64,000 bases of DNA, from NCBI RefSeq assembly GCF_055900595.2, contig NZ_CM148325.1. One strand, 5' to 3'. Below the pieces are notes generated by a model that saw nothing but the letters and a program-made list of their open reading frames with translations, was not told where the DNA came from and ran no database searches. Positions 5,098-30,207 of this stretch are shown in pieces. A program made the translations under genes and the position numbers. How positions within the stretch are numbered: the stretch's first letter is position 1; the number at the start of each line of letters is the position of its first letter.

Positions 5098-6094
5098 GCC
5101 CATCGTTTTTAGTGGCGCACAGCCCTCAGGTGAATTGACCATTGGTAACTACATGGGTGCGCTGCGTCAGTGGGTAAACATGCAGGATGACTACCATTGC
5201 ATTTACTGTATCGTTGACCAACATGCGATCACCGTGCGCCAGGATGCACAGAAGCTGCGTAAAGCAACACTGGATACGCTGGCGTTGTATCTGGCTTGTG
5301 GTATCGATCCTGAGAAAAGCACCATTTTTGTTCAGTCCCACGTGCCGGAACATGCGCAGTTAGGCTGGGCACTGAACTGCTATACCTACTTCGGCGAACT
5401 GAGCCGTATGACCCAGTTTAAAGACAAATCTGCGCGTTATGCCGAGAATATCAATGCTGGTCTGTTTGATTATCCGGTGCTGATGGCGGCGGATATTCTA
5501 CTGTATCAAACCAACCTGGTGCCGGTGGGTGAAGACCAGAAACAGCACCTGGAACTGAGCCGCGATATCGCCCAGCGTTTCAACGCGCTGTATGGCGATA
5601 TTTTTAAAGTGCCGGAACCGTTTATTCCGAAATCCGGCGCGCGCGTAATGTCGCTGCTGGAGCCGACCAAGAAGATGTCCAAGTCTGACGATAATCGCAA
5701 TAACGTTATCGGCCTGCTGGAAGATCCGAAATCGGTCGTGAAGAAAATCAAACGCGCGGTCACTGACTCCGACGAGCCGCCGGTAGTTCGCTATGATGTG
5801 CAGAATAAAGCGGGCGTTTCCAACCTGCTGGATATCCTTTCTGCGGTAACTGGCCAGAGTATCCCGGAACTGGAAAAACAGTTCGAAGGCAAGATGTATG
5901 GTCATCTGAAAGGCGAAGTGGCTGATGCCGTTTCTGGTATGCTGACTGAATTGCAGGAACGTTATCACCGTTTCCGCAACGACGAAGCCTTCCTGCAACA
6001 GGTCATGAAAGACGGCGCAGAAAAAGCCAGTGCACACGCTTCCCGGACGCTGAAAGCGGTTTACGAAGCGATTGGTTTTGTGGCGAAGCCGTAA
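5090..6094 (+). CDS. trpS: tryptophanyl-tRNA synthetase
   Basis: 334-aa ORF with class I KMSKS motif (KKMSKSDDN) and HIGH-region equivalent TIGNYMG. Confidence 0.95.
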
Positions 6095-6109
6095 TTTAAC
6101 ATTAATGCC

Positions 6110-6135
6110 AAAAACCGGGGAAACCCGGTTTTTTT
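6110..6135 (+). terminator. rho-independent terminator after trpS
   Basis: AAAAACCGGG-GAAA-CCCGGTTTTTTT stem-loop with T-run immediately after trpS stop. Confidence 0.8.
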
Positions 6136-6203
6136 ATCCTCATTTGCAATAATCCGAAAAAATGTGAAGCGCCTCGCCGTTTCCACATCTCACAGTTGCC
6201 ACT

Positions 6204-6225
6204 TATCTTCATTTTAATGAAGATA
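6204..6225. promoter_or_regulatory. perfect 10-bp inverted repeat (TATCTTCATT-tt-AATGAAGATA), candidate operator about 30 bp upstream of yhfZ
   Basis: Palindrome read directly from sequence in the AT-rich trpS-yhfZ intergenic region. Confidence 0.4.
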
Positions 6226-6253
6226 TAAACATTCATTTTATTGAAAATATATT

Positions 6254-7159
6254 ATGCGTCGAACGTTTATCAAAAAAGAAGGCGTCGTCATCACGACACT
6301 GGCCCGTTATTTGTTGGGTGAAAAATGCGGTAATCGACTGAAAACCATAGATGAACTGGCAACTGAATGCCATTCATCCGTTGGCCTGACGCAGGCCGCG
6401 TTGAAAACGCTGGAATCAAGCGGTGCGATACGAATTGAACGCCGCGGGCGCAATGGCAGTTATCTGGTGGAAATGGATAACAAAGCACTGCTGAGTCATG
6501 TGGATATCAACAACGTTGTGTGTGCCATGCCCTTGCCCTATACCCGCTTGTACGAAGGTTTAGCGAGTGGACTGAAAGCTCAGTTTGATGGCATTCCTTT
6601 TTATTATGCGCACATGCGCGGTGCGGATATTCGCGTGGAGTGTTTGCTTAACGGTGTCTATGACATGGCGGTGGTTTCCCGACTGGCGGCAGAAAGTTAT
6701 CTCACGCAAAAAGGCTTATGCCTCGCGCTGGAGTTGGGGCCGCATACCTACGTTGGCGAGCACCAGTTGATTTGCCGTAAAGGCGAGTCCGCAAACGTGA
6801 AACGCGTGGGGCTGGATAACCGTTCGGCGGATCAGAAAATCATGACCGATGTCTTTTTTGGCAGTAGCGATGTAGAACGTGTCGATCTCTCTTATCACGA
6901 GAGTTTACAACGCATTGTTAAAGGCGATGTCGATGCGGTGATCTGGAACGTGGTAGCGGAGAGCGAACTGGCCATGCTGGGATTAGAAGCGATGCCACTG
7001 ACGAACGATCTGCGATTTTTACAGGCTACTGAAGCCGTGATACTAACGCGTGCCGATGATTACCCAATGCAACAACTGCTGCGTGCAGTGGTTGATAAAC
7101 AGGCCCTGCTTGCCCATCAACAACGAGTGGTGAGTGGGGAACAGGAACCCAGTTATTAA
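6254..7159 (+). CDS. yhfZ: putative transcriptional regulator of the yhf cluster (N-terminal HTH-like region plus ligand-binding-like domain)
   Basis: 301-aa ORF, first gene of eight co-directional ORFs; recognised as YhfZ by length and position. Confidence 0.75.
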   Translation: MRRTFIKKEGVVITTLARYLLGEKCGNRLKTIDELATECHSSVGLTQAALKTLESSGAIRIERRGRNGSYLVEMDNKALLSHVDINNVVCAMPLPYTRLYEGLASGLKAQFDGIPFYYAHMRGADIRVECLLNGVYDMAVVSRLAAESYLTQKGLCLALELGPHTYVGEHQLICRKGESANVKRVGLDNRSADQKIMTDVFFGSSDVERVDLSYHESLQRIVKGDVDAVIWNVVAESELAMLGLEAMPLTNDLRFLQATEAVILTRADDYPMQQLLRAVVDKQALLAHQQRVVSGEQEPSY

Positions 7160-7175
7160 ATGAAAGGCATCTGAA

Positions 7176-7538
7176 ATGGAAACCAGACTCAACCTGCTTT
7201 GCGAGGCAGGCGTTATTGATAAGGACATCTGCAAAGGCATGATGCAGGTCGTCAAGGTACTGGAAACCGAATGCCATTTGCCAGTGCGCAGCGAGCAAGG
7301 AATGATGGCGATGACACATATGGCGAGCGCACTGATGCGCAGTCGCCGTGGTGAAGAAATAGAGCCGCTGGATAACGAATTGCTGGCAGAGCTGGCGCAA
7401 TCCAGCCACTGGTCAGCCATTTTACAATTGCATCAGGTGTTGTTGAAGGAATTCGCACTGGAAGTTAACCCGTGTGAAGAAGGCTATTTGCTGGCCAACC
7501 TTTATGGATTATGGATGGCTGCTAACGAAGAGGTTTGA
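7176..7538 (+). CDS. yhfY: small cytoplasmic protein of unknown function (YhfY family)
   Basis: 120-aa ORF 17 nt after yhfZ. Confidence 0.65.
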   Translation: METRLNLLCEAGVIDKDICKGMMQVVKVLETECHLPVRSEQGMMAMTHMASALMRSRRGEEIEPLDNELLAELAQSSHWSAILQLHQVLLKEFALEVNPCEEGYLLANLYGLWMAANEEV

Positions 7539-7621
7539 GGCTCCCGACAAATCCACGTCGCACAACCTAAATATTCAAAAAAATGAATATTTAATTCAAG
7601 GAACAGAAACGAGGCAACAAG

Positions 7622-8785
7622 ATGTTTGTAGAAGCATTGAAACGCCAGAACCCGGCACTGATTTCCGCCGCACTAAGATTGTGGCAACAGGGCAAGATCG
7701 CCCCGGACAGTTGGGTAATCGACGTGGATCAGATACTGGAAAACGGTAAGCGGCTGATTGAGACGGCGCGGCTTTACGGCATTGAACTGTATCTGATGAC
7801 CAAGCAGTTTGGTCGTAATCCGTGGCTGGCGGAAAAACTACTGGCATTGGGCTACAGCGGCATTGTGGCGGTGGATTACAAAGAGGCGCGAGTCATGCGC
7901 CGCGCCGGTTTGCCGGTGGCGCATCAGGGGCATCTGGTACAAATCCCTTGTCATCAGGTTTCTGACGCCGTTGAACAGGGCACCGACGTCATCACCGTGT
8001 TTACACTCGACAAAGCGCGGGAAGTTTCTGCCGCAGCGGTGACGGCCGGGCGGGTCCAGCCTGTGCTGCTCAAAGTTTATAGCGACGATGATTTTCTTTA
8101 TCCGGGGCAGGAGAGCGGTTTTGCACAGCATTCGCTGCATGAGGTGGTTGCTGAAATCCAGAAACTACCGGGGTTACATTTAGCCGGATTAACCCATTTC
8201 CCTTGCCTGCTATGGGATGAGGCTGCCGGGAAAGTTTTGCCAACACCGAACCTCCAGACGCTGGTCAATGCTCGTAACCAACTTCTGAAGTCTGGAGTTG
8301 TACTTGAGCAATTAAACGCGCCTTCAGCGACCAGCTGCACTTCGCTGCCATTACTGGCGGAATACGGTGTGACTCATGCCGAACCCGGCCATGCACTGAC
8401 GGGGACGATTCCGGCAAACCAGCAGGGCGACCAACCCGAACGTATCGCCATGCTTTGGCTGAGCGAAATTTCCCATCACTTCCGTGGCGACAGCTACTGC
8501 TACGGCGGCGGTTATTACCGTCGTGGTCACGCGCAACATGCGCTGGTGTTTACGCCAGAAAATCAAAAGATTACTGAAACCAATATCAAAACTGTGGATG
8601 ACAGCAGTATCGACTACACCCTGCCGCTGGCAGGCGAGTATCCGGTGAGCAGTGCAGTGGTGCTCTGTTTTCGCACGCAGATTTTTGTCACCCGTAGCGA
8701 TGTGGTGCTGGTGTCCGGTATTCACCGTGGCGAACCGGAAATCGTTGGTCGTTATGACAGTCTTGGAAGCTCTCTGGAGGCGTAA
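7622..8785 (+). CDS. yhfX: putative PLP-dependent enzyme (alanine-racemase-like fold), function unknown
   Basis: 387-aa ORF; stop overlaps yhfW start by 1 nt. Confidence 0.75.
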
Positions 8786-10011
8786 TGGCGCGATTTGTGG
8801 TGTTAGTGATTGATAGCTTTGGCGTAGGCGCAATGAAAGATGTCACGTTGGTGCGCCCACAGGATGCCGGGGCGAATACCTGTGGTCACATCCTGAGCCA
8901 ACTGCCGCATTTGCAGCTACCAACGCTGGAGAAGCTGGGGCTAATCAACGCATTAGGTTATGCGCCAGGCGATATGCAGCCGTCAGACTCCGCAACCTGG
9001 GGTGTGGCAGAGCTGCAACATGAAGGTGGCGATACCTTTATGGGGCATCAGGAAATTTTAGGCACGCGCCCGTTACCGCCGCTGCGGATGCCCTTTCGCG
9101 ATGTGATTGACCGTGTTGAACAGGCATTAGTCACCGCTGGCTGGCGGGTTGAGCGCCGTGGCGAAGAGTTGCAATTTCTGTGGGTTAATCAGTCGGTTGC
9201 CATTGGCGATAACCTCGAGGCGGATTTAGGCCAGGTCTATAACATCACCGCCAATCTCTCTGCGATCTCTTTTGACGACGCAATCAAAATTGGTCGTATC
9301 GTGCGTGAGCAGGTACAGGCCGGTCGGGTCATTACATTTGGCGGCCTGTTAACTGACAGTCAGCGCATTCTCGATGCCGCAGAAAGCAAAGAAGGGCGCT
9401 TTATTGGCATCAATGCGCCGCGTTCTGGCGCTTATGACAATGGCTTCCAGGTCGTACATATGGGCTACGGCGTCGATGAAAAAGTGCAGGTGCCGCACCA
9501 ACTGCATCAAGTGGGCGTGCCCACGGTGCTGGTGGGTAAGGTGGCAGATATTGTCAGCAATCCTTATGGCGTGAGCTGGCAAAACCTGGTGGATAGCCAG
9601 CGGATTATGGATGTCACCCTCGACGAATTTAACACGCATCCGACGGCGTTTATTTGCACCAATATCCAGGAAACCGACCTCGCTGGTCACGCAGAAGACG
9701 TCGCACGTTATGCTGAACGTTTGCAGGTCGTTGACCGTAACCTTGTCCGGCTTGTTGAGGCGATGCAGCCAGATGATTGCCTGGTCGTGATGGCGGATCA
9801 CGGTAACGATCCGACCATTGGTCACAGCCACCATACCCGTGAAGTAGTGCCAGTGCTGGTTTATCAGCAAGGGCTGGTCCACACGCAACTCGGTGTGCGC
9901 ACCACGCTTTCTGATGTGGGGGCTACCGTGTGTGAATTTTTCCGTGCGCCACCGCCACAAAATGGTCGCTCTTTTCTTTCCTCCCTCCGGTTTGCAGGAG
10001 ACACCCTATGA
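8785..10011 (+). CDS. yhfW: phosphopentomutase-like metalloenzyme, function unknown
   Basis: 408-aa ORF; N-terminus [11 protein letters not shown] resembles the DeoB metal-binding DSxGxG motif; overlaps php by 4 nt. Confidence 0.75.
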
Positions 10012-10886
10012 GTTTTGATCCGACGGGCTTCACCCTCGCCCATGAGCATCTGCATATTGATCTCTCCGGCTTTAAAAACAACGTGGACTGCCGCCTTGAT
10101 CAGTATGCGTTCATTTGCCAGGAGATGAACGACCTGATGGCACAGGGTGTGCGTAATGTGATTGAGATGACCAACCGTTACATGGGGCGCAATGCACAAT
10201 TTATGCTCGATGTAATGCACGAGACGGGGATCAACGTGGTGGCCTGCACCGGTTATTACCAGGACGCGTTTTTCCCGCAACATGTGGCGACCCGCAGCGT
10301 GCAGGAACTGGCGCAGGAGATGGTCGATGAAATTGAACAGGGTATCGATGGCACGGAGCTGAAAGCCGGGATCATCGCGGAGATTGGCTCCAGCGAAGGA
10401 AAGATTACGCCGCTGGAAGAGAAAGTTTTTATTGCCGCCGCGCTGGCACATAACCAGACCGGACGCTCGATCTCCACGCATACGTCGTTCAGCACGATGG
10501 GGCTGGAGCAATTGGCTCTGTTGCAAGCCCACGGAGTTGATCTTTCGCGCGTCACCGTTGGTCACTGCGATCTGAAAGACAACCTCGACAACATTTTGAA
10601 GATGATCGATCTCGGCGCGTATGTGCAGTTCGACACCATCGGCAAGAACAGTTACTACCCGGACGAAAAGCGCATTGCGATGCTCCACGCGCTACGTGAC
10701 CGTGGGTTGCTGAACCGCGTCATGCTGTCGATGGATATTACGCGCCGCTCTCATTTAAAAGCCAACGGTGGTTATGGCTATGACTATTTATTAACCACCT
10801 TTATTCCGCAATTGCGCCAGTCAGGATTCAGTCAGGCCGATGTGGATGTGATGTTACGTGAAACTCCCTCTCAATTTTTCCAATAA
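10008..10886 (+). CDS. php: phosphotriesterase-homology protein (amidohydrolase superfamily, binuclear metal hydrolase)
   Basis: 292-aa ORF with N-terminal HxH metal motif ([12 protein letters not shown]). Confidence 0.85.
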
Positions 10887-10896
10887 GGACAGACTC

Positions 10897-11250
10897 ATGA
10901 AAAAGATTGGTGTTGCAGGCTTACAGCGTGAGCAGATTAAAAAAACCATTGAAGCGACGGCTCCTGGCTGTTTTGAAGTTTTCATTCATAACGACATGGA
11001 AGCGGCGATGAAGGTGAAATCCGGGCAACTGGATTACTACATCGGCGCGTGTAATACCGGGGCGGGCGCGGCATTGTCGATTGCCATCGCGGTGATTGGC
11101 TATAACAAAAGTTGCACTATTGCCAAGCCGGGCATTAAAGCGAAAGACGAGCATATCGCCAAAATGATCGCCGAAGGGAAAGTGGCGTTTGGGCTTTCCG
11201 TTGAGCATGTCGAACACGCGATTCCGATGCTGATTAACCATCTGAAATAA
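10897..11250 (+). CDS. yhfU: small protein of unknown function (YhfU family)
   Basis: 117-aa reading from ATG preceded by AAGGA; track ORF begins 39 nt further upstream inside php. Confidence 0.65.
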   Translation: MKKIGVAGLQREQIKKTIEATAPGCFEVFIHNDMEAAMKVKSGQLDYYIGACNTGAGAALSIAIAVIGYNKSCTIAKPGIKAKDEHIAKMIAEGKVAFGLSVEHVEHAIPMLINHLK

Positions 11251-11261
11251 AAGGCACGACT

Positions 11262-12566
11262 ATGGATCTGTATATTCAGATTATCGTGGTGGCGTGCCTG
11301 ACGGGTATGACATCGCTTCTGGCGCATCGCTCGGCAGCCGTTTTTCATGACGGTATCCGCCCGATCCTGCCGCAACTGATTGAAGGCTATATGAACCGTC
11401 GTGAGGCGGGGAGTATCGCTTTTGGTCTGAGCATTGGTTTTGTGGCCTCGGTGGGGATCTCTTTTACCCTGAAAACCGGGTTGCTCAACGCATGGTTACT
11501 CTTTCTTCCTACCGATATCCTCGGTGTCCTGGCGATAAACAGCCTGATGGCGTTTGGCCTTGGTGCACTCTGGGGCGTACTGATCCTCACCTGCCTGCTG
11601 CCGGTAAACCAGCTGCTGACCGCGCTACCGGTGGATGTATTAGGTAGTCTGGGGGAATTAAGCTCGCCAGTGGTTTCAGCTTTTGCACTGTTCCCGTTGG
11701 TGGCGATTTTCTACCAGTTTGGCTGGAAGCAAAGTCTGATCGCCGCCGTGGTAGTGTTGATGACCCGTGTGGTGGTAGTGCGCTATTTCCCGCATCTCAA
11801 TCCGGAATCCATCGAAATCTTTATTGGCATGGTGATGCTGCTGGGGATCGCGATAACTCACGACCTGCGTCATCGTGATGAAAATGACATCGATGCCAGC
11901 GGTATGTCGGTGTTTGAAGAACGTACGTCGAGGATTATCAAAAATTTACCCTATATCGCCATCGTAGGGGCGCTGATTGCCGCCGTTGCCAGCATGAAGA
12001 TTTTTGCTGGTAGTGAAGTGTCGATCTTCACCCTGGAGAAAGCATATTCCGCAGGTGTAACGCCGGAACAATCACAAACGCTGATCAACCAGGCGGCGCT
12101 GGCGGAATTTATGCGCGGGCTGGGTTTTGTGCCGTTGATTGCCACCACCGCGTTAGCAACAGGTGTGTATGCAGTTGCGGGCTTTACCTTTGTTTATGCG
12201 GTGGGCTATCTCTCGCCGAATCCGATGATTGCAGCGGTATTAGGCGCAGTGGTTATTTCGGCGGAAGTCCTGTTACTTCGTTCGATCGGCAAATGGCTGG
12301 GACGCTATCCATCGGTACGTAACGCGTCGGATAACATCCGTAACGCCATGAATATGCTGATGGAAGTGGCGTTGCTGGTCGGTTCGATTTTCGCAGCAAT
12401 TAAAATGGCGGGCTATACCGGATTCTCCATCGCGGTTGCCATTTACTTCCTCAACGAATCCCTGGGCCGTCCGGTACAGAAAATGGCGGCACCGGTCGTA
12501 GCAGTAATGATCACTGGCATCCTGCTGAATGTTCTTTACTGGCTTGGTCTGTTCGTTCCGGCTTAA
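11262..12566 (+). CDS. yhfT: polytopic inner-membrane protein, putative transporter (YhfT family)
   Basis: 434-aa ORF, multiple hydrophobic segments. Confidence 0.75.
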   Translation: MDLYIQIIVVACLTGMTSLLAHRSAAVFHDGIRPILPQLIEGYMNRREAGSIAFGLSIGFVASVGISFTLKTGLLNAWLLFLPTDILGVLAINSLMAFGLGALWGVLILTCLLPVNQLLTALPVDVLGSLGELSSPVVSAFALFPLVAIFYQFGWKQSLIAAVVVLMTRVVVVRYFPHLNPESIEIFIGMVMLLGIAITHDLRHRDENDIDASGMSVFEERTSRIIKNLPYIAIVGALIAAVASMKIFAGSEVSIFTLEKAYSAGVTPEQSQTLINQAALAEFMRGLGFVPLIATTALATGVYAVAGFTFVYAVGYLSPNPMIAAVLGAVVISAEVLLLRSIGKWLGRYPSVRNASDNIRNAMNMLMEVALLVGSIFAAIKMAGYTGFSIAVAIYFLNESLGRPVQKMAAPVVAVMITGILLNVLYWLGLFVPA

Positions 12567-12577
12567 AGAAGGCACCT

Positions 12578-13663
12578 ATGAAGACGTTTCCTTTGCAAAG
12601 CCTGACGCTTATTGAAGCGCAGCAAAAGCAGTTTGCGTTGGTGGATACGATTTGCCGCCATTTTCCCGGCGCGGAGTTTCTTACCCGCGGGGATTCAGGC
12701 TTAACGCCGGGCCTGAATCAACCGCGCATTACTCAGCGTGTGGAGCAGGTGCTGGCTGATGCGTTTCATGCGCCAGCGGCGGCGCTGGTGCAGGGCGCGG
12801 GTACTGGAGCAATTCGCGTCGGGCTGGCAGCTTTGCTCAAATCGGGGCAGCGTCTTCTGGTGCATGACGCGCCTGTTTACCCGACGACTCAGGTCATTAT
12901 TGAACAGATGGGGCTGACGCTTATTACTGCTGATTTTAATGACCTGTCGGCACTGAAGCAGGTCGTCGACGAGCAACAACCAGATGCCGCGCTGGTGCAG
13001 CATACGCGCCAGCAGCCGCAGGACAGCTATGTACTGGCAGATGTGCTGGCAACGCTGCGCGCAGCAGGTGTTCCAGCCTTAACCGATGACAACTATGCGG
13101 TGATGAAGGTGGCGCGCATTGGCTGTGAATGCGGGGCGAATGTCTCGACATTTTCCTGCTTCAAGCTGTTTGGGCCAGAGGGTGTTGGCGCGGTGGTAGG
13201 CGATGCTGATGTTATTAACCGGATCCGCGCCACGCTCTATTCCGGAGGCAGTCAGATCCAGGGCGCACAGGCGCTGGAAGTATTGCGTGGTCTGGTGTTT
13301 GCGCCAGTGATGCACGCGGTGCAGGCGGGGGTATCTGAACGGTTGCTGGCCTTGCTCAACGGTGGCGCGGTGGCGGAAGTTAAAAGCGCCGTTATTGCTA
13401 ATGCGCAGTCGAAGGTGTTGATTGTCGAGTTTCATCAGCCGATTGCCGCCAGAGTGCTGGAAGAGGCGCAAAAGCGCGGTGCCTTGCCTTACCCGGTGGG
13501 TGCAGAGTCGAAATATGAAATCCCGCCGCTCTTTTATCGACTTTCCGGAACGTTTCGTCAGGCGAATCCGCAATTAGAACATTGTGCAATTCGCATTAAC
13601 CCGAATCGCAGCGGTGATGAGACGGTATTGCGGATTTTGCGCGAGAGTATTGCCAGCGTTTAA
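12578..13663 (+). CDS. yhfS: putative PLP-dependent enzyme (fold type I-like), function unknown
   Basis: 361-aa ORF; candidate PLP lysine in SCFKLFG; last gene of cluster. Confidence 0.75.
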   Translation: MKTFPLQSLTLIEAQQKQFALVDTICRHFPGAEFLTRGDSGLTPGLNQPRITQRVEQVLADAFHAPAAALVQGAGTGAIRVGLAALLKSGQRLLVHDAPVYPTTQVIIEQMGLTLITADFNDLSALKQVVDEQQPDAALVQHTRQQPQDSYVLADVLATLRAAGVPALTDDNYAVMKVARIGCECGANVSTFSCFKLFGPEGVGAVVGDADVINRIRATLYSGGSQIQGAQALEVLRGLVFAPVMHAVQAGVSERLLALLNGGAVAEVKSAVIANAQSKVLIVEFHQPIAARVLEEAQKRGALPYPVGAESKYEIPPLFYRLSGTFRQANPQLEHCAIRINPNRSGDETVLRILRESIASV

Positions 13664-28013: not shown

Positions 28014-28039
28014 ATGCCGGATAATTGTTTATCCGGCAT
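28014..28039. terminator. bidirectional terminator-like palindrome between convergent yhfA and prkB
   Basis: ATGCCGGATAA-ttgt-TTATCCGGCAT perfect 11-bp inverted repeat. Confidence 0.55.
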
Positions 28040-29191: not shown

Positions 29192-30207
29192 GATTTCGCC
29201 TCCAGATACGTTGTTAACCAGTCAGGAATGCGTGACTCCAGCCACATTTGCGGATGAAATAATGTACCGCCAAGAAAGCCAACATGACCACCATGTTCAG
29301 TCAGTTGATACTCCACCTGCGGGGGGAGATTTTCCGGTTTCGGGATCACCTGATGATCCATAAACGGATCGTCTTTGGCGTGAATAATCAGTGTCGGTTT
29401 GGCGATCTGGTTCAGCATCGGCATGGCGCTACACTGACGATAATAGTCGATAGCGTCAGCGTAGCCGTGAATTCTGGCGGTGATCAGATCGTCAAATTCA
29501 CGGATGCGACGTACCGATTTTAACTGTGCGAGATTAATCGGCAGCGTACCGGGATAGGCTGCCAGTTTGCGCGCAGCATTGGCTTTTAACAGGTTCAGCA
29601 AGTAACGCTGATAAACGCGGGAAAAGCCCTTTTCCATATGATAACTACAGGCTTCCAGCATAAATGGCGCGGAGACAATTACCGCTGCATCAATCGAGAG
29701 GTTATTACCTTCTTTTGCCAGCAAACAGGCGAGCATATTACCGCCGAGCGAATAGCCGACGGCAGCCGTTGGCGCATGTCCAAATTCGCGCTGCAGCCAG
29801 CGTAAAAACCAGCTGGCGTCTTCAGTTTCGCCCGAATGGTAAATGCGGTGCATACGGTTTGGTTCACCGCTGCATCCGCGAAAATGCATCACCACGCCCA
29901 GCCAGCCGCGTTTTTGCGCCGCCTCGACCAGACCGTGGGCGTAAGGGCTATTGAGGCTGCCCTCCAGCCCGTGAAACACCACTAAACGCGGTTTCTGTTT
30001 CGCCTGGGCAGGGTCTTCACTCCATGCGAGATCGACAAAATCGCCGTCGGGCAACTCCAGTCGCTGCCAGTGCGGGGTGAATTTCACCTTGCGACGAAAC
30101 AGACGCGGCAGCATGGTTTGCAGATGACAATTGCTAAAGCCGCGCATAGGGGTGAATTCAGCACTGCTGCTGAATTCATTGGCATCGGTCGTCGTTATCT
30201 GCGCCAT
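29185..30207 (-). CDS. yheT: alpha/beta-hydrolase-fold protein
   Basis: 340-aa ORF with GYSLGG nucleophile elbow. Confidence 0.8.

Follow-up and report, generated by a model that had tools for sequence, protein, structure and literature searches.

A conserved inverted repeat ahead of yhfZ, one of three candidate operators of the yhf gene cluster

The inverted repeat at positions 6204–6225, just ahead of yhfZ, is probably the first (O1) of a set of three operators at which, judging from the sequence, dimers of YhfZ would keep the promoters of yhfZ and yhfX repressed until a ligand binds. The window, that is, the whole 64-kb stretch of DNA that was analysed, comes from an Escherichia chromosome with the gene order dam-rpe-gph-trpS followed by yhfZ-yhfY-yhfX-yhfW-php-yhfU-yhfT-yhfS. 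The presumed binder, YhfZ, is encoded at 6254..7159 (+ strand; 301 residues). The small gene yhfY (7176..7538, + strand) is, to judge by its position, co-transcribed with yhfZ. The structural genes downstream of O3, yhfX-yhfW-php-yhfU-yhfT-yhfS (7622..13663, + strand), specify in that order a PLP racemase-like protein, a phosphopentomutase-like protein, a phosphotriesterase-related protein, a DUF2620 protein, the membrane protein YhfT and a PLP enzyme. An operon table lists yhfX-yhfS as a separate unit (PMC4448311).

O1, TATCTTCATT-tt-AATGAAGATA, has two 10-nt arms that are 100% complementary across a 2-nt spacer. Its end is 28 bp from the yhfZ ATG (6254), and the stretch that contains it, from the trpS terminator to yhfZ, is 68% A+T. 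The first-pass annotation had described a perfect 10-bp palindrome about 30 bp before the yhfZ start in AT-rich DNA, and the description is accurate, the sequence at 6204–6225 being an exact match. How readily would such a repeat arise by chance? When the 118-nt stretch between the terminator and the ATG was simulated 20,000 times with a first-order Markov model, the probability of a perfect inverted repeat (arms of at least 10, spacer of at most 10) was 0.0042. By the same definition, the 64-kb window contains 12 perfect repeats against an expected 0.67 ± 0.8. The arms are at most 60% A+T in ten of these 12, several of which resemble terminator stems; arms of 80–90% A+T occur in only two, those at 6204–6225 and 7568–7593. 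Two perfect 10-bp repeats elsewhere in the window are also unlike simple terminators: GAATTCAGCA-ctgc-TGCTGAATTC at 30154–30177, and TGCCGGATAA-ttgt-TTATCCGGCA at 28015–28038, which has a REP-like look.

The innermost arm bases of the 10-2-10 palindrome vary. In K-12-like E. coli the corresponding sequence is TATCTTCA-aattcc-TGAAGATA, and, since it differs in just these innermost bases, the perfect 10-bp palindrome is restricted to some lineages. On this comparison, the 10-2-10 form is perfect only by an accident of the spacer in particular lineages. What, then, is the unit that is conserved? It is a 7-6-7 inverted repeat of 20 bp, ATnTTCA-N6-TGAAnAT, with a variable A/T-rich centre. At O1 itself the conserved arm extends to 8 bp, one more than the 7 bp of the motif, again with a 6-bp spacer. 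When five E. coli variants are aligned, the outer arms of O1, TATCTTCA and TGAAGATA, do not vary, and the six bases between them read TTTTAA in the window, AATTCC in K-12-like strains and TTTTTA in another E. coli lineage. At O2 the arms are likewise fixed among the E. coli variants and the six central bases differ. All three sites are found in K-12-like strains.

The three copies in the window are as follows. The core of O1, ATCTTCA-ttttaa-TGAAGAT, occupies 6205–6224, with 0 mismatches to ATNTTCANNNNNNTGAANAT and a weight-matrix score of 33.1 bits; the extended 26-bp motif spans 6202–6227. O2, ACATTCA-ttttat-TGAAAAT, lies at 6229–6248 (1 mismatch to ATNTTCANNNNNNTGAANAT, 31.5 bits), its centre 24 bp downstream of that of O1, and stops 5 bp short of the yhfZ ATG. 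The two form part of a direct repeat in which 6232–6251 is 90% identical to 6208–6227. O3, ATATTCA-aaaaaa-TGAATAT, is the best of the three (0 mismatches to ATNTTCANNNNNNTGAANAT, 35.7 bits). It is found at 7571–7590, in the spacer between yhfY and yhfX, 31 bp ahead of the yhfX ATG, and is enclosed by the perfect palindrome TAAATATTCA-aaaaaa-TGAATATTTA at 7568–7593. In simulation, a spacer like this one contains a perfect 10-bp inverted repeat with a probability of 0.00025.

The association of the motif with the yhf cluster is exclusive. Within the 64-kb window, ATNTTCANNNNNNTGAANAT recurs at no more than 1 mismatch only at 6205, 6229 and 7571, every other position having at least 2 mismatches, and O1, O2 and O3 are the only weight-matrix matches of at least 8 bits. 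The scan of the window's own genome covered these 64 kb, so the regulon may be larger. In each of the three sites 10 bp separate the centre of the TTCA core from that of TGAA. This is one helical turn, the geometry for a helix-turn-helix (HTH) dimer in successive major grooves, and it agrees with the geometry of a dimeric regulator that the first-pass annotation had expected. That annotation had also offered a lone perfect 10-2-10 repeat as the operator candidate and had named YhfZ as a possible binder. Conservation, described below, supports the operator reading; on the other hand, the unit is 7-6-7 rather than 10-2-10, and it is one of three sites rather than alone.

Several further features of this region in E. 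coli were noted. At 6249–6256 there is no recognisable Shine–Dalgarno sequence for yhfZ in the window, O2 ending 5 nt from the ATG (…TGAAAATATATTATG). The start codon is probably right, since the N-terminus of YhfZ is conserved from residue 1, and translation initiation would therefore be weak or non-canonical. Positions 5800–6700 are matched at 99% identity or more in only 8 of 5,426 complete E. coli genomes, most showing 90–95%. About 350 E. coli genomes, O157:H7 included, match only the trpS part, from which it follows that these genomes lack the yhfZ end of the cluster or have something else in its place. In the nearest genome (strain Z0117EC0005) the annotation gives yhfW as a pseudogene interrupted by an internal stop (L001:11986–13212); the window carries an intact ORF of 408 aa at 8785–10011.

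If the repeat is an operator of the yhf cluster, is it kept where the cluster is found in other species? A search of contigs by YhfZ alignment, with one genome taken per species, yielded 80 loci (981 kb) from genera that include Escherichia, Citrobacter, Klebsiella, Trabulsiella, Cedecea, Buttiauxella, Serratia, Photorhabdus, Xenorhabdus, Providencia, Vibrio and Photobacterium. Across these loci the identity of YhfZ ranges from 98% down to 45%. The motif is present at fixed offsets upstream of yhfZ in 78 of the 80. In its strict form, TTCA-N6-TGAA, it lies at −46, −45 or −44 from the yhfZ ATG, at −22, or at both positions, and again at about +1320, just ahead of yhfX. The O1 position (−46/−45/−44) is kept in 61 of the 80 loci and the O2 position (−22) in 49; the site upstream of yhfX, O3, is present in all 75 loci of the Enterobacterales. 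The Vibrionaceae have one site only, at −25 to −29 from the yhfZ ATG. Outside the sites, the intergenic DNA is mostly unalignable between genera, apart from a few short conserved blocks. Conservation of the palindrome in orthologous intergenic regions was the check that the first-pass annotation had proposed for its candidate operator. The half-sites pass it, holding their offsets through the Enterobacterales and Vibrionaceae in DNA that has otherwise diverged, and the recurrence of the motif as O2 and O3 lends the candidate further support.

A symmetrised weight matrix of 26 nt, TwwATnTTCAwwwwwwTGAAnATwwA, was run over the 981 kb with a cut-off of at least 10 bits. It returned 133 matches upstream of yhfZ, 75 upstream of yhfX and 15 elsewhere. 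For its core positions the matrix is circular, the sites having been selected on them; no such circularity affects the flanking AT dinucleotides (frequency about 0.9) or the constancy of position. Weak matches in the php coding sequence of Vibrionaceae (CTCA core, 16–22 bits) look like conserved coding sequence and were not taken for operators.

Does the motif belong to the cluster or to its neighbours? Only in the Enterobacteriaceae is the yhfZ cluster preceded by trpS, and the motif stays with the cluster where trpS is not the upstream neighbour, as in Serratia, Xenorhabdus, Photorhabdus and Vibrio. In Pluralibacter (L043), where yhfY stands ahead of yhfZ, the site is before yhfY, the first gene; at a distant locus with a differing gene order (L087), the motif likewise tracks the first gene. 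Some arrangements are peculiar to single genera. Twenty-two loci, most of those of Xenorhabdus (L053–L078), are without O2 and have an extra copy 104 bp upstream of O1, at about −149 from the yhfZ ATG. The 104-bp spacing is about 10 helical turns and would suit DNA looping. In Photorhabdus an O3-like copy (AAAATATTCAAAAAAATGAT[A/G]AT…, 17–25 bits; L037:1438–1463, L041:1432–1457, L045:999–1024) lies 4.5–5 kb upstream of yhfZ, between convergent ORFs of which one is membrane-transporter-like. It could be a relic or mark an extra member of the regulon.

Which protein might bind these sites? YhfZ is the most likely candidate, since it is the sole DNA-binding protein encoded in the cluster: a domain search finds an HTH domain in YhfZ only. 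The protein consists of a winged HTH (PF14502, HTH_41; residues 24–71, 68 bits) followed by PF14503, YhfZ_C (residues 75–301), of which the crystal structure PDB 2OZZ covers the C-domain. The domain search finds no DNA-binding domain in YhfY, which is PRD-like, although both its PRD match (E = 0.004) and its match to TIGR03582 fall below cut-off. The model NF041241, ‘GntR family transcriptional regulator YhfZ’, matches YhfZ at 372.8 bits, while PF00392 (GntR) gives no match to the YhfZ of the window and is weak or faint in distant homologues. A passage of PMC12147183, citing its reference 39, names the protein ‘putative transcription factor YhfZ’. The main texts and supplements searched give no account of YhfZ DNA binding, an operator, a regulon, an inducer or a transcription start site (TSS). 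YhfZ is unmentioned in the text of the ChIP-exo papers on y-transcription factors (PMC8464067, PMC6237786) and in the supplements of PMC8464067, and the Cappable-seq and ROSE TSS supplements, searched as text, have no entry for yhfZ, yhfX or yhfY.

In the AlphaFold2 (AF2) model (pLDDT 89), YhfZ is predicted to join a winged HTH through a short linker to a type-2 solute-binding-protein (SBP) fold. The best non-self PDB matches of this model are full-length regulators of the LysR type (OxyR, CbnR, BenM, CcmR) and solute-binding proteins. To which family, then, should YhfZ be compared? Like the autoregulated local repressors of the GntR superfamily in E. coli (FadR, GntR, UxuR/ExuR, PdhR), it has an N-terminal winged HTH and a C-terminal effector domain, is encoded at the head of its operon, and is associated with short A+T-rich inverted repeats, here over the candidate promoters. 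In the GntR family, however, the effector domain is of the FCD, UTRA or aminotransferase type, whereas in YhfZ it has the type-2 solute-binding-protein fold (PF14503, 2OZZ). Moreover, GntR operators are usually quoted with GT…AC, which the enterobacterial ATnTTCA-N6-TGAAnAT lacks; the GT/AC pair appears only in the distant TACA-type sites described below (e.g. TGTACA in L091). With LysR-type regulators (OxyR, CbnR, BenM), YhfZ appears from its model to share the winged HTH and type-2 periplasmic-binding-protein architecture, along with a gene that adjoins its likely targets and, probably, autoregulation. On the other hand, the HTH_1 and LysR_substrate models do not match YhfZ, and its short linker contrasts with the long linker helix of the LysR type. 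LysR-type genes are divergent and use ATC-N9-GAT or T-N11-A boxes in RBS/ABS pairs; yhfZ is co-directional with its targets, and its palindromes are compact 7-6-7 repeats. Resemblance of fold alone does not make YhfZ a member of the LysR family, and we reject that assignment.

Where do the sites lie with respect to transcription? The intrinsic terminator of trpS, AAAAACCGGG-gaaa-CCCGGTTTTT followed by a T-run (6110–6139, stem 6110–6133, + strand), is invariant in the E. coli alignment and, as read from the sequence, isolates the control region of yhfZ from transcription of trpS. In many E. coli strains an insertion of 110–130 bp lies between the trpS stop codon and this terminator (L002:1296–1430, L003:1296–1405); the window has none at the corresponding point, 6095/6096. 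In a K-12-like strain the insertion is REP/BIME-like in look, and the operators downstream are unaffected; a BIME is listed before yhfZ (PMC2965389).

Anchoring 15 genus-level sequences on O1 revealed three conserved blocks upstream of it: TGTGA-N6-TC.C (6163–6178), TTT (6180–6182) and TTGC (6196–6199; TTGACC in Serratia). The first is a CRP-like site, TGTGA-agcgcc-TCGCC, centred at 6170.5 within the 22-mer aaaTGTGAagcgccTCGCCgtt (6160–6181). Compared with the consensus TGTGA-N6-TCACA its left half is perfect and its right half, TCGCC, agrees at 3 of 5 positions; conservation of the TGTGA-N6-TC.C columns extends from Escherichia as far as Xenorhabdus and Providencia. This likeness to the consensus suggests that CRP binds at 6163–6178 and that cAMP–CRP controls the yhf cluster.

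Sigma-70-like scans gave several similar-scoring, mutually exclusive promoter candidates in this A+T-rich DNA, which conservation across species narrowed to two. Candidate Pa (6196–6224, + strand; score 7.72) has −35 TTGCCA at 6196–6201, a 17-bp spacer and −10 GAAGAT at 6219–6224; its −10 is the right half of O1, and its predicted TSS falls at about 6231–6232. From that start the CRP-like site would be centred at −60.5/−61.5, a position valid only if Pa is real; CRP sites are expected at −41.5 or −61.5, give or take whole helical turns. Candidate Pb (6180–6209, + strand; score 8.25) has −35 TTTCCA at 6180–6185, an 18-bp spacer and −10 TATCTT at 6204–6209, which is the left half of O1; the Providencia orthologue has TTGACA-17-TATCTT at the same place. 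O1 thus overlaps the −10 of both candidates. Upstream of O3 the orthologue alignment contains no conserved −35 and promoter scores are low; a Shine–Dalgarno sequence, GAGG, lies between O3 and the yhfX ATG.

How might such a set of sites work? We infer YhfZ binding, repression, the promoter positions, ligand release and CRP input from the sequence, as follows. A YhfZ dimer would occupy O1, O2 and O3 through its GntR-like winged HTH. O1 would lie over the −10 hexamer, O2 over the start site or leader, and O3 just upstream of the yhfX ribosome-binding site, and, from these positions, occupancy should block RNA polymerase. YhfZ would in this way repress its own yhfZY transcript as well as the structural genes yhfX-yhfS, until a small molecule bound to its C-terminal SBP-fold domain released it. 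The CRP-like site upstream would probably add catabolite control. At O3 the effect may be occlusion of a weak yhfX promoter or, alternatively, O3 may serve as a roadblock or a looping partner.

The arrangement resembles those of lac (O1/O2/O3) and gal (OE/OI) in having a promoter operator, auxiliary copies and a CRP-type site upstream. The auxiliary copies lie both close by and far off, O1 and O2 being 24 bp apart and O3 about 1.35 kb downstream. Unlike the auxiliary operators of lac and gal, O3 precedes a further set of genes, where it may act on a promoter of its own rather than form a loop. Since the 24 bp between the centres of O1 and O2 is a non-integral number of helical turns, simple cooperativity on the same face of the DNA is not obvious.

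Do more distant relatives of YhfZ have sites of the same kind? A profile search gave a family of 799 clusters at 50% identity, and seven representatives, 31–36% identical to YhfZ, were examined. Six of the seven are found in yhf-type clusters on low-GC contigs; palindromes of the same geometry precede the leading gene of each operon, and some operons have them in an internal spacer too. Two of the loci (L085, L086) have TTCA-N6-TGAA before the operon, while four (L087, L089, L090, L091) have TACA-N6-TGTA, in two intergenic copies each. At the start of the recognition helix (residues 42–44), the four proteins of the TTCA type read S-V-G and the four of the TACA type (S/A/T)-R-G. This is suggestive of residue 43 (Val versus Arg) as a candidate determinant of specificity, in a comparison of four proteins with four that is confounded by phylogeny. 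At the seventh locus (L092, 31% identity), the regulator of the YhfZ family stands beside a RuBisCO-like/sugar-kinase cluster instead of yhf genes, with a hybrid site, ATATTCA-gcatac-TGTAAAT, ahead of the RuBisCO-like gene (L092:1970–1995). The YhfZ family may regulate other pathways with the same operator geometry.

If the operators are real, must YhfZ be a repressor at all of them? It might instead be a ligand-dependent activator, at least at yhfX, in the LysR manner, its own gene being repressed and the adjacent operon activated. With ambiguous promoters and no conserved −35 before O3, repression and activation at yhfX are both possible. Missing a conserved −35 and scoring low is what an activator-dependent promoter should do, and the nearest full-length structures to the AF2 model, the LysR-type regulators, share the predicted architecture of YhfZ. 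The position of O3, on the other hand, is that of a repressor site. It is 31 bp from the yhfX ATG with GAGG between, so a transcript whose start includes the Shine–Dalgarno sequence would place O3 over the −10 or spacer, and activator sites lie at or upstream of −41.5. Neither the Pfam nor the NCBIfam models for LysR give a match to YhfZ. On balance, we consider activation unlikely.

Might some other regulator, encoded elsewhere, bind the motif: a nucleoid-associated protein, a global factor or an unrelated local one? Fis, IHF and H-NS are often bound in promoter regions, and the sites are both A+T-rich and placed in such regions; the conserved CRP-like element, too, implies that other factors probably act here. 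But the motif does not occur in the remaining approximately 62 kb of the window, it is nearly absent from the 981 kb outside the yhf parts, and it travels with yhfZ clusters into unrelated neighbourhoods and low-GC organisms. The half-site, furthermore, changes together with the recognition helix of YhfZ. The sites of CRP/FNR (TGTGA-N6-TCACA) and TyrR (TGTAAA-N6-TTTACA) have the same inverted half-sites with a 6-bp spacer and cores about one helical turn apart; the yhf half-site, TTCA/TGAA, differs from theirs, and its distribution is confined to one gene cluster. To our knowledge, the motif is unlike the boxes of ArgR (TGAAT-N4-ATTCA), Cra, CRP, FNR, Fur, NsrR, MetR, TyrR and NarL (7-2-7) in orientation or spacing. 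We regard a foreign regulator as distinctly improbable.

We give almost no credence to a nucleic-acid hairpin (an RNA attenuator or terminator, or a DNA cruciform) or to a chance repeat in A+T-rich DNA: the RNA does form a stem of 9 bp (−8.3 kcal/mol, z = −6.3), as that of any palindrome must, but among 100 unique sites the arm position −1/+14 is Watson–Crick paired in 25 against 27.1 expected by independence and the central pair 6/7 is complementary in 17 against 50.6, there is no G+C-rich stem, T-run or terminator call at the site, O1 lies at or upstream of any plausible TSS, and chance, at P = 0.004 for O1 alone, is excluded by conservation over 80 species. A scan of 5900–7800 against Rfam found no family match at the palindrome, and a sub-threshold match to a Brucella sRNA, on the opposite strand, covers the terminator only. 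With no covariation, no Rfam family and a fold that is trivial for a palindrome, the RNA reading was dropped. The arms show no compensatory changes, which argues for a protein site, not a hairpin.

What does a YhfZ-bound operator set mean for the yhf cluster? As a gene switch it would be of the ordinary type, a local repressor with palindromic operators as in any textbook, though one without description in the literature searched. The eight-gene yhf cluster and YhfZ belong to the share of the E. coli K-12 genome that has yet to be characterised. Three mapped sites turn a ‘putative regulator’ into testable predictions: autoregulation, control of yhfX-yhfS, probable dependence on cAMP–CRP, and specificity set by a single residue. 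The operator motif also offers a route to the inducer and the substrate of the yhf pathway. More tentatively, and with the odds in our estimation somewhat against it, YhfZ-type proteins may constitute a distinct and widespread family of regulators with a code of its own, T[T/A]CA-N6-TG[A/T]A, in which residue 43 would set the second base of the half-site, and a CRP-linked switch of three operators, with a PRD-like neighbour, would control a putative yhfX-yhfS catabolic pathway in hosts that range from E. coli K-12 through Vibrio to low-GC bacteria. Were that so, the operators would provide a handle on the substrate of one of the larger orphan operons that remain in E. coli.
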